From IMG/VR virus record IMGVR_UViG_638341082_000010: 35,031 bases of DNA, one strand, 5' to 3'. Position 1 is the first letter of the stretch. Every line of letters begins with the position of its first letter. A program made the position numbers and the translations under genes. This DNA is from a virus. Lineage: Duplodnaviria; Heunggongvirae; Uroviricota; Caudoviricetes. The notes under the pieces are model-generated. The model was not told where the DNA came from. It was given only the letters and a program-made list of their open reading frames with translations, and did no database searches. Below, in pieces: positions 22,912 to 29,703 of this stretch.

Positions 22912-25044
22912 ATGAGTACCACAACACGAAAATTTAAAACCGTTATCACCGATACGGGTGCAAAAAAATTAGCTCAGGCAGCCGCGCCAGATGGTAAGCC
23001 TGTCCGCCTGACTCATATGGCCGTGGGCGACGGTGGCGGCACGTTGCCCACACCAGACAGTAAGCAGACCCGTCTGGTGCATGAGGTGTGGCGACATACT
23101 GTTAATCGCGTCATCCTGGACGCAACACATCAGAATCGCATTATTGCGGAGCTGGTTATTCCTCCAGAAACGGGCGGATTCTGGATCCGGGAAATTGGTG
23201 TGTTTGATGAGCACGGCGATTTAGTCGCGGTGGGCAATACTGCCGAAAGTTACAAGCCAGCCGTTGCCGAAGGGTCCGGTCGTACACAAACATTTCGCAC
23301 CATTCTGACCGTATCCAGCACTGCCACTGTGGCGCTTACCGTGGATAACACCATGGTGATGGCCACAGTGGATTACGTGGATAACAAACTGAAAGAGCAT
23401 GAACAGTCACGACGTCACCCGGATGCCTCGCTGACCGCAAAAGGCTTTGTTCAACTCAGTAGCGCCACTAACAGCGTGTCTGAAACACAAGCTGCAACGC
23501 CGAAAGCAGTAAAGGCCGCGTATGACCTTGCTAACGGGAAATATACTGCGCAGGATGCCAGCACAACGCGAAAAGGCCTTGTTCAGCTCAGTAGCGCCAC
23601 CAACAGCGATTCTGAAACGCTGGCGGCAACACCAAAGGCGGTAAAGGCAGCATATGACCTTGCTAACGGGAAATATACCGCACAGGACGCTACCACAGCG
23701 CGAAAAGGTCTTATCCAGCTCAGCAGTGCGACTAACAGCACTTCCGAGTCACTGGCGGCAACGCCAAAAGCCGTTAAGGCCGCGTATGAGCTGGCTAACG
23801 GGAAATACACCGCACAGGATGCAACGACAGCACAGAAAGGGATAGTTCAGCTTAGCAACGCGACCAACAGCACATCTGAAACGCTGGCGGCAACGCCAAA
23901 GGCGGTAAAGGCAGCATATGACCTTGCTAACGGGAAATATACCGCACAGGACGCTACCACAGCGCGAAAAGGTCTTGTCCAGCTCAGTAGTGCAACCAAC
24001 AGCACGTCTGAAACGCTTGCCGCGACCCCGAAAGCGGTTAAAGCTGCTAATGACAATGCAAACGGGCGTGTGCCCTCTGGACGTAAGGTTAATGGCAAAC
24101 CACTGACCAATGATGTCAATGTTACATCACAGGATATTTTTAACGGTCAGAGTATTAATATTGGTGCAAACCAGAATCTGGATAATTACAAAACGCCGGG
24201 GCTGTACCATCAACCCCTGAATGCCTATACAAGTGCAGCGCTGAAATACCCAGAGAATCTTGCCGGTACACTGGTTGTGCTTAAAAATGCCGGGATAACA
24301 CAGATTTACTATGTGTATAACACATCCAGAAGCTATACCCGCAGCCAGTACTCAACGGGTGACTGGACAGCATGGACGCCGCAGGATTCATTTCCTGTAG
24401 GTGCGGCGATTCCGTGGCCTTCTGATTCAGTGCCTACAGGCTATGCCGTTATGCAGGGGCAGACTTTTGATAAAACAACCTATCCCCTGCTTGCAGCAGC
24501 TTATCCCTCTGGTGTACTCCCCGATATGCGTGGCTGGACAATCAAGGGCAAACCCGCCAGTGGTCGGGACGTATTGTCTCTGGAACAGGATGGCATTAAA
24601 TCGCACACCCACAGCGCCAGCGCATCCAATACGGATTTGGGTACGAAAACCACATCTTCGTTTGATTACGGTACTAAATCAACGAATAACACAGGTGCAC
24701 ATACCCACAATGTATCTGGTACTGCAAATAGTGCTGGCGCACATACTCATACCGTGCCATTAAGGAGACCAAACAGTGGCGGTATGAATTTCGACTGGCT
24801 GGATGGTGCATCAAGTGGCACGGTGGTAGGGAATGGAACTGTGCCTTCTTCTGGCGCACATACCCACTCAGTATCAGGTACCGCTACAAGTGCTGGGGCA
24901 CATGCACACACTGTTGGTATTGGCGCTCATACGCACTCTGTTGCGATTGGTTCACATGGACATACCATCACCGTTAACGCTGCTGGTAACGCGGAAAACA
25001 CCGTTAAAAACATCGCATTTAATTATATTGTGAGGCTTGCATAA
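22912..25044 (+). CDS. H: Tail fibre protein H
   Basis: 710 aa; conserved P2-H-like N-terminus, about six tandem 42-aa repeats, His-rich C-terminal domain ending NYIVRLA. Confidence 0.85.
23434..24065 (+). repeat. About six tandem 126-bp coding repeats inside H
   Basis: Repeated peptide unit [43 protein letters not shown]; also produces spurious antisense ORFs. Confidence 0.8.
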
Positions 25045-25661
25045 TGGCATTCAGAATGAGTGAACAATCACGTACTGTAAAAATTTATAACCTGCTGGCC
25101 GGAACTAATGAGTTTATTGGTGAAGGTGACGCATATATTCCACCTCATACAGGGCTGCCAGCTAATTCTACAGATATCGCCCCACCGGAAATTCCTGCTG
25201 GCTTTGTGGTAGTTTTTAACAGTGAAAATGAATCGTGGAATATTGTTGAAGACCATCGTGGTAAAACGGTCTATGACGTGGCATCGGGGGACGCGTTGTT
25301 TATTTCTGAACCCGGACCGCTACCAGAGAATGTCACCTGGTTGTCGCCAGCAGGGGAATATCAGAAGTGGGACGGCGTATCCTGGGTGAAGGATGAGGAA
25401 GCAGAAAAACTGTTTCGGATACGGGAAGCGGAAGAGAAAAAGGCAAGGTTGATCCAGGAGGCAACAGATAACATCGCAATCCTGCAGGATGCAGTTAATC
25501 TTGAAATAGCAACAAACGAGGAAAATTCACAACTGGATTCCTGGAGAAAATACAGAGTATTAGTGAGTAGAATTGACACCAGTACAGCTCCGGATATCGT
25601 ATGGCCAGAGCTGATGAATCAGGGTTATGTGCGGGAGGACGAGCAGATAACTTCAGACTGA
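25044..25661 (+). CDS. G: Tail fibre assembly chaperone (gpG/Tfa-like)
   Basis: 205 aa directly after H. Confidence 0.75.
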
Positions 25662-26188
25662 AATTTAGTGATGAATGTTGAATCATCAGGAATATCATGC
25701 AATACCAATGCATGAGCACCTATTGTGACATTGTTTCCTATACGCACTTTGCCACCAAGAATGGTGGCATTACAACCAATGGTCACATTATGTCCTATAA
25801 CAATATCCATATCATTAAAATCACCACGTAGCCCAATAGTTACCCCCGGTTTTATTGAACAATTTTCACCGATTGTTACTTTGTGACCGATAACAACACT
25901 GTTGAGATAAGAAATATCAAAGCCTTTCCCTATATTTACAGTTAAAGGGACTGTTATATTATATTTATCAAGAATGAAACGTTCTATTTTCCCCGCAATC
26001 TTCCGACAGTATCCGCCTTTATCAAAAAGGTATTTGGCTATGCGCCACCAAAATAAATAACGAAGTCTTCTATGTTTTATTGCGCGAACAATTGCCTTTC
26101 GCCAGGAGAAAGGACGCTCGCTACCGATTACTTCATAGTGAATACAGTCTTTAAGTTCATTAATATTCATATCTCTATTATTCAGCAT
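25625..26188 (-). CDS. Hexapeptide-repeat (left-handed beta-helix) acetyltransferase; low-GC moron
   Basis: 187 aa; imperfect hexapeptide repeats ([45 protein letters not shown]); visibly AT-rich versus flanks. Confidence 0.75.
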
Positions 26189-26358
26189 AAGATAATCATG
26201 TGACCAATTATTGTAATAATTTTAATGGTATGTTTCTACTGGCTATCCAGCGTGTCTGATACCCAGTAACAAATCGTTAACACAGGTGCAATCAAATGGT
26301 GAGTGTTAAGACTGGCCACTTATTACCAGGTATGAGGGTATGAGTGGCCAGCATTAAA

Positions 26359-26853
26359 TCAGAACAGCCCTTTAACTGAACTGGCCGCGCTGTTAAGGGA
26401 TGATGTCACTTTATCTTTGAAGCCGGACAGCATATCGCTGAACGATGAGGATTGCAGGCGCTCCCGCAAATCCTCATCACAGCGTTCAAGGGTCAGTGAA
26501 AATTCTATCTTTTTCGCCTTACCGTAGCGATCAAACTCGGAACGGGTCGTATTCGTTTCGGTCAGGACATACATGCCGTAAATCTGCCCGACGCCATCAA
26601 TAAGAGGCCAGGGGCGTCCTGTATACGCCTGCGTGGTCAGCAGCGACAGCGACACTTCGCCACCTGTAATTTCAGGATAAAGCACACCAGAAAGAACGAT
26701 GCGATCATCACCTGCACCGATATACTGCCAGCTTGCTGAACGGTTAACGCGTTCATTTTTCACATGCCGCCAGCTTTTGTTTTGCTGTAACTGCTGATGC
26801 GGCAGCGTGCGCAGCTCAAAAACAAACATGCCGTAGATCATCATCATGGCCAT
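26359..26853 (-). CDS. U: Tail protein U
   Basis: 164 aa downstream of the tape measure gene. Confidence 0.8.
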   Translation of the reverse strand: MAMMMIYGMFVFELRTLPHQQLQQNKSWRHVKNERVNRSASWQYIGAGDDRIVLSGVLYPEITGGEVSLSLLTTQAYTGRPWPLIDGVGQIYGMYVLTETNTTRSEFDRYGKAKKIEFSLTLERCDEDLRERLQSSSFSDMLSGFKDKVTSSLNSAASSVKGLF

Positions 26854-26859
26854 GACTCC

Positions 26860-29703
26860 TCAATCTTTATCGTAAAAACTGCCACGCCCGGCATGGGCAC
26901 GCCGTTCCATTTCTGCCCTGACCATTTCACCGACCAGTTTCGCCAGTTCGCGGGGATTCTGCGTAACAACGTTATGCAGATGAACATGAATTTCACCACC
27001 AAATCCGGAGGCAACAGGCTCCCGGTTACGGGAAGTTGCAGGAACTGATGCCACTGGCGATCGTATGGCCTCCGCCACCGGGTGAGAGCTGGCCGCAACA
27101 ACAGGGACCAGCGCCGGAGGCAGCGGAGCCGGAACCACGGGGGTGATATTAATTGCGGGGGCAGGCTTACTGACCTGTGTAATCTTCCGCTCCTGCCACT
27201 CCCCACGAACAGCAAGTGCGCGGGGCAGGTTCTTAAAGACAATATCGCCGGGGCCAATGCGTTTTTTCGTCTCATCAACCAGCTTACCTGTGTTATCAGC
27301 AATTTTGCTGAGTCTGCGTAGCGTCCCGGTATTGCTGTCTGTGAGCGGTTTGTTGTCTTTGGGTTTATCACCTCCGGTGCCATTGCCATTTTCCACAGGC
27401 TTCGGCGGATTGATTTTCGCCAGGTCCCCCTGAAGTAAGGCTACCTTGTCCTGAAGAATGGCCGCACGCTGTGCGTCTTCGATTTTCTTGCGCGCCCTTT
27501 CCGCTTCATCCGGAAGGACGCCAAGTTTTTCAAGTATCCACGCCAGCGTATCCAGTAGCATTTTTGCAGGTGTCAGAACAAGTTGTAACGCACCGCCAAG
27601 AACGTTACCGAATATCTCGCCAGCACTGGTACATTTATCCAGCGTTTCCTTGCTGGACTCCATCGGTGACAGTAGCGATTTAAACCAGTTAAACACCTGG
27701 CTGATCCCGCTTCCGATTGCGTCAAAAACAGGACCAAACCGTTCAAAAGTTTCGCGCAACGGGGTCAGCCTTTCCATAATCCCGCTGAACACCCCGGCAA
27801 AAAATGCCCTGATGGGATCCCAGTATTTCCAGATAAGAACGGCAGCTCCGGCAAGCGCAGCCACGATAAGACCAACCGGACTGAACAGCGCCCCGATAGC
27901 ACCTCCCAGCAAAGAAACGGAACCCGTCACCATTCCCCATAGTGCTGGCAGGAGCCTGACAGCATTCATTGATCCGGTCAGGAGGGAAAAACCAAGACGC
28001 AGTTTTGCCAGCGGGCCAGCAAGCACACCAAGAGCAAGCGACAACGAGCCTACGGTTGCAGTCACTGCCAGCAGCGCACCGCCTGCAATCAGTAGCTGGC
28101 GCGTCAGTACAGGATGGGCCTGCGCCAGTACCGTCACCTTTGAGACCACCCGTGTTAGCCACTGCGTGACAGAACGCAGCGGACCGTCAACCAGATCACT
28201 GATGCGAATACGAAGACCTTCCCATGCGCTGTCGAGATTTTTCAGGTCGCCATCAAGGTTGTCGGCCATAACCTTTGCCGTGCGTTCAGCCTCACCGCGT
28301 GCGCCCTCAAGTTCTTTTCTCAGTTTGGGTAAGGAACCGTCACCCGCCGCATCAACGAGTGCCATAAACGATGTGAAAGCCTCTTCCCCGGCGATGTCCT
28401 TAAAGAAGGATACCCGGTCAACTTCCCCGTATTTGCGGGTAGCTTTATAAAGGTCAGCCAGCAGATCTTCCATCGGGCGCATTTTGCCCCCGGCATCCGA
28501 AACGGACACGCCCAGCTCTTTCAGAGCTTCTGCCGCCGCCTTTGGCGGTGATGCCAGACGAGCCAGGCTGGCACGCATTGCCGTCCCGGCATCACTCCCT
28601 CTGATGCCCATATTCGCCAGCACGCCCGCCATCGCTGCGGTCTGCTCCAGCGATATTCCCAGCTTACCCGCCACCGGACCTGCATATTTCATGGTTTCGC
28701 CCAGTGCGCGAAGGTCAGTGTTGGTACGGGTAAACGCTGCGGTGAGTGTGTCACCGACCCGGTCCATCTGGTCAGCAGAAAGGCCGAACTGCGTCAGGAT
28801 ATTTGAGCCAATATCTGCCGTCTCGCCGAGATCCATACCGCCAGCCGTTGCCATGCTCAGCACGCCGGGAAGCGCAGCCTGAATGGCCTGCGGAGTGAAG
28901 CCAGCCATTGCAAGAAATGCCTGTCCACTGGCGGCATCGCCTGCGGTGAACTGCGTTTCAGAGCCAAGTTTTAACGCCTGCTCACGCAGCGCCTTAAACT
29001 GCGGGCTGTTCTGGTCGATTCGCGTCAGTGCCTGAACGCGGGACATCTCTTTGCCGAACCCGATCGCAGGCTGCAAAAAACGCCCGGCAGCATAGCCGCC
29101 CGCCGCTGCCGCACCAATTGCCAGTGCACCACCTGTTTTCAGTTTTCCCGCTGTTTCCTGCGCGCGCGAATACCGCTCACGCGCCCGCGTTACACGCGCA
29201 AGCGCCTGCCGTTCGCGTTCAAGCTGATTGTTGTACTGTTCGGTGCGTCTGATGGCCTGCTGGATGGTGTTATCGCTGCCTGTCAGGGAAATGCCGTGGC
29301 GTTTCAGCTCTCCGCCAAGCTCCCGCATTTTCTGAATTTCCCGCGTGCGCGATTCATTCAGGCGTTCAAGCCGGGTGCTTAACTGCTGCATCAGCTTTTG
29401 TTGTTTTTCGCTGAGCACTGTACCCGTGCGTTGTAACTGATTAAGGGCGTTAAGCTGGCGTCGTGCTTTCACGATACCCGCATCCGCTTTACTGACAGCG
29501 TCGCGGGCGCGCTCAAATGAACGCGCCTGACGCTCGAGATTTTTGATCGCCCCCTGCGTTCGCTGGATGGAGTCACCAAACTGCCCCATCAGGCGGCGGG
29601 CGTTTTCGGCAGGCCGGGTCAGCCTGTCAACGGCGCTGAAAGCGACCCGGATATCAAGAGTCTTCATTGTCTGCATTCCCGCTGCGAAGTGCCGCCCGCT
29701 CAC
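26860..29703 (-). CDS. T: Tail tape measure protein T
   Basis: 947 aa, coiled-coil N-terminus and Gly/Ala-rich hydrophobic segments. Confidence 0.85.
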   Translation of the reverse strand: MSGRHFAAGMQTMKTLDIRVAFSAVDRLTRPAENARRLMGQFGDSIQRTQGAIKNLERQARSFERARDAVSKADAGIVKARRQLNALNQLQRTGTVLSEKQQKLMQQLSTRLERLNESRTREIQKMRELGGELKRHGISLTGSDNTIQQAIRRTEQYNNQLERERQALARVTRARERYSRAQETAGKLKTGGALAIGAAAAGGYAAGRFLQPAIGFGKEMSRVQALTRIDQNSPQFKALREQALKLGSETQFTAGDAASGQAFLAMAGFTPQAIQAALPGVLSMATAGGMDLGETADIGSNILTQFGLSADQMDRVGDTLTAAFTRTNTDLRALGETMKYAGPVAGKLGISLEQTAAMAGVLANMGIRGSDAGTAMRASLARLASPPKAAAEALKELGVSVSDAGGKMRPMEDLLADLYKATRKYGEVDRVSFFKDIAGEEAFTSFMALVDAAGDGSLPKLRKELEGARGEAERTAKVMADNLDGDLKNLDSAWEGLRIRISDLVDGPLRSVTQWLTRVVSKVTVLAQAHPVLTRQLLIAGGALLAVTATVGSLSLALGVLAGPLAKLRLGFSLLTGSMNAVRLLPALWGMVTGSVSLLGGAIGALFSPVGLIVAALAGAAVLIWKYWDPIRAFFAGVFSGIMERLTPLRETFERFGPVFDAIGSGISQVFNWFKSLLSPMESSKETLDKCTSAGEIFGNVLGGALQLVLTPAKMLLDTLAWILEKLGVLPDEAERARKKIEDAQRAAILQDKVALLQGDLAKINPPKPVENGNGTGGDKPKDNKPLTDSNTGTLRRLSKIADNTGKLVDETKKRIGPGDIVFKNLPRALAVRGEWQERKITQVSKPAPAINITPVVPAPLPPALVPVVAASSHPVAEAIRSPVASVPATSRNREPVASGFGGEIHVHLHNVVTQNPRELAKLVGEMVRAEMERRAHAGRGSFYDKD

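Follow-up and report, generated by a model that had tools for sequence, protein, structure and literature searches.

An acetyltransferase-like gene with a replaced catalytic pair beside the tail-fibre genes of a P88-like Escherichia coli prophage: a candidate envelope modifier

An AT-Rich Gene in a Variable Slot

We analyzed an acetyltransferase-like gene in the IMG/VR virus record IMGVR_UViG_638341082_000010, a stretch of 35,031 nucleotides that we call the window. The window is a P88-like (Xuanwuvirus, Peduoviridae) prophage of Escherichia coli, and its positions 24900–27000 are 100% identical to the chromosome of strain E700025. The gene lies on the minus strand between the tail-fibre assembly (chaperone) gene tfa (25044–25661, plus strand; Pfam Caudo_TAP, 1.6e-39) and the gene for a P2 gpU-like tail protein (26359–26853, minus strand; Pfam Phage_P2_GpU, 5.5e-39), which is the last gene of an inverted tail operon and marks the edge of a variable slot. 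Past gpU, the genes for the tape measure, E, tube, and sheath are all on the minus strand and that for gpD is on the plus strand. In the open reading frame (ORF) listing of the window, the gene is an intact ORF at 25625–26188 encoding 187 aa, and a preliminary description of the DNA had presented it as a hexapeptide-repeat protein of that length, strongly AT-rich in comparison with its flanks. Both statements were borne out. The product matches Pfam Hexapep (E = 1.1e-12, 47.5 bits, cut-off 27), and a register of tandem imperfect repeats of the form [LIV]-[GAED]-X2-[STAV]-X is readable across residues 75–164. The true start is probably ATG 26170, as ATG 26188 is absent in alleles of 91% identity and homologues start at the methionine of 26170. 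This would give a coding sequence of 25625–26170 (minus strand) for a protein of 181 aa belonging to the left-handed parallel β-helix (LbH) acyltransferase family (Pfam PF00132 clan); the residue numbers below, such as Thr73 and Tyr88, refer to this form and not to the in-frame alternative of 187 aa.

The gene has a GC content of 37.4% and the spacer upstream of it (26171–26358) one of 37.2%, compared with 53% in the whole window, 45.8% in tfa, 51.3% in the fibre gene, 50.5% in gpU, and 57% in the tape-measure gene. At third codon positions (GC3), the difference is 29.7% vs. 56–57% in the tail genes, and the composition is clearly foreign to the surrounding phage genes. In other P88-like phages, homology resumes only at ~26354, at the gpU stop, and the acetyltransferase-like gene is missing; the gene thus shows the odd composition and the absence from close phage relatives that characterize a moron. 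In P88, the corresponding slot is occupied by an invertible fibre segment composed of a tfa′ in inverted orientation, part of a fibre gene, and a DNA invertase.

The gene and tfa are convergent, and their 3′ ends overlap by 37 nt. The overlap follows from a 2-nt indel just ahead of the usual tfa stop (...DIVWPEL*; 25616–25661, plus strand) that lengthens tfa of the window by 15 aa, to 205 aa from the 190 aa of the allele in related cassettes. The placement of the gene at the Z/fun locus of P2, as first proposed, holds in part. Like fun(Z), a nonessential lysogenic-conversion gene, it is found in a Peduoviridae phage directly after a fibre chaperone gene and convergent to it. However, the phage is P88-like and not P2, the loci are not homologous, and the products of fun(Z) and of the P88 segment (tfa′, fibre′, and DNA invertase) are unrelated to that of our gene. 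The far flank is gpU rather than the F promoter: the tail block has the opposite orientation to that of P2, which places the 3′ end of U, and not the FI promoter, beside the gene.

Fold and Family of the Product

The AlphaFold monomer model of the product (predicted local distance difference test score [pLDDT] 91.8, predicted template modelling score [pTM] 0.84) consists of four helices at residues 3–70 followed by β-helix coils with the left-handed parallel β-helix fold. By its architecture, residues 1–70 form a helical N-domain resembling that of serine acetyltransferase (SAT) and containing an FWWR motif, and residues from about 75 to 164 form the β-helix. W41, W42, and R43 of the motif are invariant across the phage and plasmid members of the family, and the glycine/hydrophobic pattern of the coils binding coenzyme A (CoA) is fully kept. 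The closest solved structures are serine acetyltransferases (phmmer 7.7e-12; Foldseek TMq 0.7–0.77), but the structural neighbours also include nonenzymatic LbH proteins, namely CcmN, dynactin p25/p27, eIF2B, and the γ-CA-like subunits of complex I. In the viral structure library BFVD, only poor matches with TM below 0.45 were found. The product is probably a soluble LbH protein of SAT architecture and a putative trimer.

Assignment to a named family was less successful. The NCBIfam profiles ranked EpsC first (81.9 bits), followed by CysE (70.7), WcaB (60–62), and NeuD (49.9), with the cut-offs of 150–210 all far above the scores. Weak profile matches to LacA, Maa, Vat, and CatB-type enzymes cover the C-terminal coils only. 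The best phage-specific match, over residues 5–186 (1.6e-78), is to phrog_2154 of PHROGs, a family of unknown function. We rejected the name serine acetyltransferase, given by RefSeq/PGAP and by phage annotators: the scores were 70.7 bits vs. 210.65 required for TIGR01172 and 43.1 vs. 397 for PRK11132. The product is 21–28% identical to CysE (EC 2.3.1.30; PDB 4n69, 1t3d, 6wye) and has an N-domain of about 70 helical residues vs. about 140, with no Pfam SATase_N domain; its gene is prophage-borne with no cysteine-pathway gene in its context, and its serine-binding and catalytic residues are replaced, as detailed below. The WcaB and EpsC-type proteins (TIGR04016, NF041874) are closer in form, being short SAT-like LbH proteins of 150–190 aa that act on exopolysaccharide units. 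Nevertheless, the product scored only 60–82 bits against their cut-offs of 150–196 (60.0 and 62.4 bits for TIGR04016 and PRK10191 vs. 194.65 and 196), and the gene lies between tfa and gpU of a prophage, outside any polysaccharide cluster such as wca. The family is uncharacterized and borne on mobile elements: temperate phages, phage-plasmids, and I-complex conjugative plasmids.

Replacement of the Catalytic Pair

In CysE, Asp157, Arg192, and His193 are serine/cysteine-binding residues. The catalytic pair of SAT is formed by Asp143 and His158 (PMC8786284). In gap-free HMMER alignments to solved SATs, Asp143, Asp157, His158, Arg192, and His193 of E. coli CysE align to Thr73, Ser87, Tyr88, Met, and Asp of the product, the last two falling in an "NDMDI" stretch. 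The general-base histidine is hence replaced by Tyr88 (codon TAT, 25907–25909, minus strand) and its aspartate partner by Thr73 (codon ACA, 25952–25954, minus strand).

We computed the residue frequencies of these columns in an alignment of 93 family sequences. The histidine column contained 82 His, 8 Tyr, and 3 Asn, and the Asp143 column contained D or E in 59 of the 82 His-type sequences, compared with K, T, or V in all eight Tyr-type sequences. The division follows relatedness: every relative with at least 52% identity, including all E. coli alleles, the Hafnia phage yong2, and several metagenomic proteins, has Tyr, while every one with 50% or less has His. Neighbour-joining placed the Tyr-type sequences in one monophyletic clade inside the phage-borne His-type family. 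It is a narrow clade, as E ≤ 1e-30 was reached by only 4 cluster representatives of 1.84 billion, and no members were found in species-representative genomes.

With the Asp–His pair replaced by Thr73 and Tyr88, the chemistry of the product must differ from that of CysE, WcaB, and NeuO. The general rule that such enzymes O-acetylate sugars, from which the preliminary description had argued, is therefore not simply transferable to this protein, whose Tyr88 and Thr73 stand in for a His and an Asp kept in most relatives. A subclade that lacks the dyad yet is strongly constrained appears to be previously undescribed.

Two distant chromosomal relatives in Pedobacter (L156 and L167, 3884–4426; L numbers denote our comparison loci) have independently acquired Tyr at the His column ("RIQYGFG"). 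They lie ~0.6 kb from a Bac_transf phosphoglycosyl transferase gene, a hint that a Tyr at this position is still compatible with a function in glycan pathways.

Linkage to Tail-Fibre Genes

The unit of tfa and the acetyltransferase-like gene is common to four backbones: P88-like prophages, 47–49 kb RepA phage-plasmids, P1-like IncY phage-plasmids, and a prophage edge adjoining IS1 and the host btsSR genes. Immediately upstream, the RepA phage-plasmids still have the remnant of a reading frame, and about 90 nt of the gpU 3′ end are left in the related phage vB_EcoM-613R2. To quantify the linkage, we took 84 full-length loci (GenBank phages, E. coli replicons, and IMG/VR) and scored a locus as linked when the 3′ end of a convergent tfa homologue fell between −36 and +50 nt. 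A convergent tfa was present in 41 of the 43 Tyr-type loci and in 17 of the 41 His-type loci, the latter with at least five different Tfa types. The linked loci include the Tyr-type one of the Hafnia phage yong2 and the His-type ones of C. rodentium phage phiNP (38% identity) and the P1-like JL22 (36%), these three covering 36–52% identity; 3′-to-3′ adjacency to tfa was often seen, reaching down to 34% identity. At several other loci, a fibre-like gene is convergent in place of tfa, one of them with a Gp10_C/gp37-like domain. The synonymous divergence between two E. coli cassette lineages is similar for tfa (0.68–0.75) and for the acetyltransferase-like gene (0.53–0.68), which fits long coinheritance.

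These patterns suggest that the gene travels with tfa, and apparently with the fibre tip, as one host-range cassette among at least four backbones. In JL22 (L009, 273–7489), the homologue has U on one side and the convergent tfa/stf on the other, with cin adjacent, and is thus inside the equivalent of the invertible C segment of P1, indicating that fibre inversion and the acetyltransferase-like gene can coexist. The phiNP homologue follows a hicAB toxin–antitoxin pair on the same strand. There are exceptions to the linkage: the P2-like ESSI2 phages carry the gene near int, and some loci have unrelated neighbours. The pairing with tail-fibre assembly genes across phages and phage-plasmids appears to be previously undescribed. 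The authors of the JL22 paper describe the presence of the gene as unexplained (PMC9603915) and those of the phiNP paper name it only as a possible "fitness" gene (PMC6456863), and our literature search found no functional study.

Distribution and Selection

We found the gene in 184 of 5,426 complete E. coli genomes, where it occupies 218 places, 159 on chromosomes and 59 on plasmids. Between the window allele and alleles of 91% identity, dN is 0.033–0.043 and dS 0.53–0.68, giving ω of 0.055–0.07; the gene is under strong purifying selection and is not decaying. Frameshifts in related strains, which would have counted against a function, were not what we saw, as the gene is intact in nearly all E. 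coli carriers and dN/dS is about 0.06. The exceptions are IS1 insertions at one site and one 3′-deleted allele (L005/L047). IS1 is inserted after about codon 67 (~25970 in the window), at the same position, in three independent records (L049, 1–180; L052, 4202–4970; and E. coli E1648), and these copies are a recurrent or inherited knock-out allele. In E. coli 99-3165 (L005, 3703–5003), the last ~26 codons have been lost at a deletion junction and dN/dS against the window allele is about 0.6. The P88-like prophage of this strain is itself degraded, its baseplate J gene being truncated and its fibre gene reduced to a remnant, and its copy of the acetyltransferase-like gene looks like a decaying one. 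The carrier strains cover several serotypes, including O6, O166, and O80.

Outside E. coli, the contexts are more varied. Enterobacterales relatives of 35–45% identity in species-representative genomes have mixed contexts with no tfa. A chromosomal family member in Leminorella adjoins a Wzy_C gene, and distant relatives are located among glycosyltransferases; overall, the relatives more remote than those of 35–45% identity are a mixture of true cysE genes, next to cysS or cysK, and genes of polysaccharide loci, so that context at that distance is not discriminating. A tblastn search found a relative in 664 plasmid records, 376 of them from Escherichia. On I-complex (IncK2/Z) conjugative plasmids, the relatives are of His-type, with 36–38% identity, the WWR motif, and an intact Asp/His pair (L171, 2963–3553; L172, 3935–4522), and they sit near repA, flanked by a toxin–antitoxin pair and a ProQ/FinO-family gene, in surroundings free of phage genes.

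Two further phage contexts were observed. Virulent dairy phages of S. thermophilus belonging to the 987 group (9871, L010, 3510–4037, and about 20 related records) carry a His-type relative of 28% identity. It follows the last virion structural gene on the same strand and precedes the holin genes, which again puts it immediately behind the presumed receptor-binding module. On one IMG/VR contig (L069, 3021–4124, minus strand), a His-type relative is convergent to a gene with a borderline match to Glyco_transf_9 (E = 1.6e-4, 21.5 bits, cut-off 22), the family of lipopolysaccharide (LPS) heptosyltransferases, and the two could possibly form a phage-borne pair modifying the LPS core.

The Spacer and Its Promoter-Like Site

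The AT-rich spacer between the gpU stop and the start of the gene (26171–26358, minus strand, 37% GC) contains a σ70-like promoter candidate, TAGAAA–17 nt–TACAAT, at 26210–26238 on the minus strand, ~40 nt upstream of ATG 26170. Found by a consensus scan and matching the consensus at 9 of 12 positions, it is a consensus match only. It is kept as TAGAAA/TATAAT in alleles at a synonymous divergence of about 0.6 and falls inside the segment common to the P88-like, 47-kb plasmid, and P1-like backbones. Promoter-like matches in the region numbered 8 vs. 4.6 ± 2.3 in shuffled sequences, and the enrichment is not significant.

Directly after the gpU stop, positions 26312–26351 (minus strand) can form a hairpin with a 10-bp stem and no U-tract (predicted RNA fold −24.1 kcal/mol, z = −2.8), which may mark where the tail operon ends or serve as an RNA-stability element. 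Downstream of the acetyltransferase-like gene, which runs into tfa, we found no terminator. We looked for tandem repeats as a sign of phase variation and found none in the gene and one 8-nt repeat in two copies in the loop region of the hairpin.

Proposed Role

Our preferred reading, in which we have slightly less than even confidence, is that the gene is a horizontally acquired moron of the P88-like prophage that is expressed in the lysogen and modifies an envelope glycan by noncanonical chemistry, masking a receptor. The gene would be transcribed in the lysogen from its own promoter and the protein would bind an acyl-CoA, as suggested by the intact coil pattern of the CoA-binding region. Acting at the cytoplasmic membrane face, it would then modify a sugar in a precursor of an envelope glycan, the candidate acceptors being lipid A-core, the undecaprenyl-linked O-unit, enterobacterial common antigen (ECA), colanic acid, or a nucleotide sugar. 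The surface would thereby be altered for phages using the receptor type of the linked fibre, resulting in receptor masking or superinfection exclusion and possibly in antigenic change. The transfer itself might be base-independent (e.g., to an amine), Tyr-assisted, or substrate-assisted.

A glycan acceptor is suggested by the matches to the EpsC, WcaB, and NeuD profiles (alongside CysE), the Wzy_C gene in Leminorella, the glycosyltransferase neighbours of distant relatives, and the Bac_transf gene in Pedobacter. Among the roles of such a modification, receptor masking or serotype conversion seems the most plausible, and the linkage to the fibre and Tfa genes strengthens it. Because carriers are found in several serotypes, a glycan that is conserved (LPS core, ECA, or colanic acid, for instance) is a better guess for the target than a specific O-antigen.

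Several observations weigh against this proposal. The general-base histidine and its acidic partner are both missing, so that canonical O-acetyl transfer is doubtful and any activity is putative, and the acceptor is not readable from the sequence. The spread of the carriers over several serotypes, O6, O166, and O80 among them, speaks against an O-antigen target confined to one serotype. Fibre neighbours are absent from the family members on conjugative plasmids and from some of those on phages, and the site behind the fibre genes is a general cargo site, so the linkage could be due to hitch-hiking. The candidate promoter of the gene is only a match to the consensus. Finally, fibres of the lambda Stf and T4 gp37 types use OmpC as well as LPS. 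As the fibre tip of the window resembles these OmpC-using fibres, it might escape a block by a modified glycan.

LbH acetyltransferases carried by prophages as conversion cargo are already known as a general kind, the precedent being NeuO of prophage CUS-3, an LbH O-acetyltransferase of the capsule (PMC3046976). NeuO, a polysialic acid O-acetyltransferase (PDB 3jqy), differs from our product in belonging to another LbH branch (MAT/LacA-like), in needing His147 and Trp171, and in being carried by a P22-like phage; furthermore, it is phase-variable via 5′ heptanucleotide repeats, whereas the window gene has neither tandem repeats nor the active-site His. An exclusion or conversion gene beside a receptor-binding module follows the same logic as T5 llp, the cor genes of phi80, N15, and HK022, Sf6 Oac, and Salmonella OafA. 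Of these, the FhuA blockers Llp and Cor are small lipoproteins or membrane proteins, and Oac and OafA are acyltransferase-3 enzymes integral to the membrane, in contrast to the soluble LbH protein predicted here. In Salmonella, oafA neighbours a tail-fibre assembly gene, a precedent for the arrangement (PMC9426603). The conversion gene fun(Z) of P2 is a further precedent.

A bolder interpretation, to which we assign a low probability, is that the Tyr-type subclade is a mechanistically new kind of LbH protein, either a base-independent or Tyr-dependent acyltransferase or a noncatalytic binder, that serves as the self-exclusion partner of a mobile cassette of fibre tip, Tfa, and LbH protein. Each fibre specificity would travel with a matched modifier of its own LPS/glycan receptor, making the gene the glycan counterpart of T5 Llp and phi80 Cor, and the relatives on I-complex plasmids might act likewise against LPS-binding thin pili.

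Should modification of a receptor glycan be the true role, the gene would represent a widespread and unstudied way for temperate phages, phage-plasmids, and perhaps conjugative plasmids to protect their hosts and to change surface antigens. It would also account for a gene that about 3% of complete E. coli genomes contain and that is routinely misannotated as "serine acetyltransferase", and would bear on the prediction of host range and resistance for phages with exchangeable fibres. The change from Asp–His to Thr–Tyr under purifying selection is a natural test of whether an LbH acyltransferase can do without its general base or has turned into a binding protein.

Alternative Explanations

The rival that survives best, a serious one though clearly less likely, is a noncatalytic LbH pseudoenzyme that works by sequestering a sugar-nucleotide or lipid-linked intermediate or by binding acetyl-CoA or a host or phage protein, with any surface or exclusion phenotype arising via inhibition. 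It accounts well for the joint loss of both dyad residues in a monophyletic subclade and agrees with the nonenzymatic LbH proteins CcmN, dynactin p25/p27, eIF2B, and γ-CA-like subunits of complex I being among the structural neighbours. It is also favoured by the strong purifying selection, which persists regardless of the loss and means that the protein is used for something. It accounts less well for the fully retained glycine/hydrophobic pattern of the CoA-binding coils and for the independent His-to-Tyr change inside polysaccharide loci in Pedobacter. Moreover, LbH N-acetyltransferases without a catalytic base exist, namely QdtC, WlbB, and AntD, and their structures appear in the structure-search results for the product.

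Two other explanations are considerably less probable than that. The first is an intracellular antiphage defence or counter-defence gene in a variable slot, comparable to P2 fun(Z), old, and tin, whose target is something other than a surface glycan. The variable cargo slot is where P2 has fun(Z), a blocker of T5 growth, the phiNP homologue adjoins hicAB, and the family also occurs on conjugative plasmids. We know of no LbH acyltransferase defence system, however, and the gene is a lone small gene without a partner. The PADLOC defence models gave no match to the product even at E ≤ 1. P2-like phages do hold hotspots of antiviral systems, but the hotspot described is at gpA–gpQ, a different locus (PMC9122126).

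The second, which we consider to have a similarly small chance, is hitch-hiking cargo unrelated to the fibre: a small-molecule, xenobiotic, or metabolic acetyltransferase of the maltose/galactoside or antibiotic type, placed at a permissive site and dragged along by fibre recombination. The site behind the fibre genes indeed accepts insertions, as the P88 invertase segment and P2 fun(Z) demonstrate, and some relatives have no fibre neighbour. On the other hand, the adjacency to tfa persists to 34–38% identity and involves at least five Tfa types. The LacA, Maa, Vat, and CatB-type matches that would favour such an enzyme are much weaker than those to SAT, EpsC, and WcaB-type proteins and are confined to the C-terminal coils, and xenobiotic enzymes need the catalytic His that is replaced here.

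A late, virion-related role, in which the gene is read through from the tail operon and modifies or assists the fibre or its chaperone, is highly improbable. The gene is directly downstream of gpU on the same strand, separated only by the hairpin lacking a U-tract, and the homologue of the 987-group phages is similarly placed on the same strand between the last structural gene and a holin gene; but most P88-like phages build the same tail without the gene, its composition is foreign, it is convergent to the fibre operon, and the family occurs on conjugative plasmids that have no virion. A true CysE boosting cysteine synthesis, suggested by the annotators' name and the solved SAT structures nearest to the product, is already contradicted by the TIGR01172 score, the five replaced active-site residues, the lack of SATase_N, and the lack of a cys context, and we give it almost no credence.

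Further Features of the Fibre Region

The tail-fibre gene upstream of tfa (22912–25044, plus strand; Pfam Phage_tail_fib, five Phage_fiber_2, Collar, and Phage_fiber) is a mosaic of a P2 gpH-type N terminus, five Phage_fiber_2 repeats, a collar domain, and a His-rich tip. The C-terminal tip is 65% identical to the tip of lambda Stf (orf-314 region) and 64% identical to that of T4 gp37. A leftover crossover site of an invertase was considered and rejected: the pattern AAACCNNGGTTT, with one mismatch allowed, had 0 matches, which is a weak test.

A scan of 24800–27000 with Rfam gave nothing credible in the spacer and, apart from one chance-level microRNA match, a single sub-threshold match to IS009 (RF02111) at 25387–25585 on the plus strand (75.4 bits vs. 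a gathering threshold of 117, E = 1.1e-16). This match lies wholly inside the coding sequence of tfa and probably reflects homology to tfa-derived sequence in the Rfam seed rather than a small RNA.

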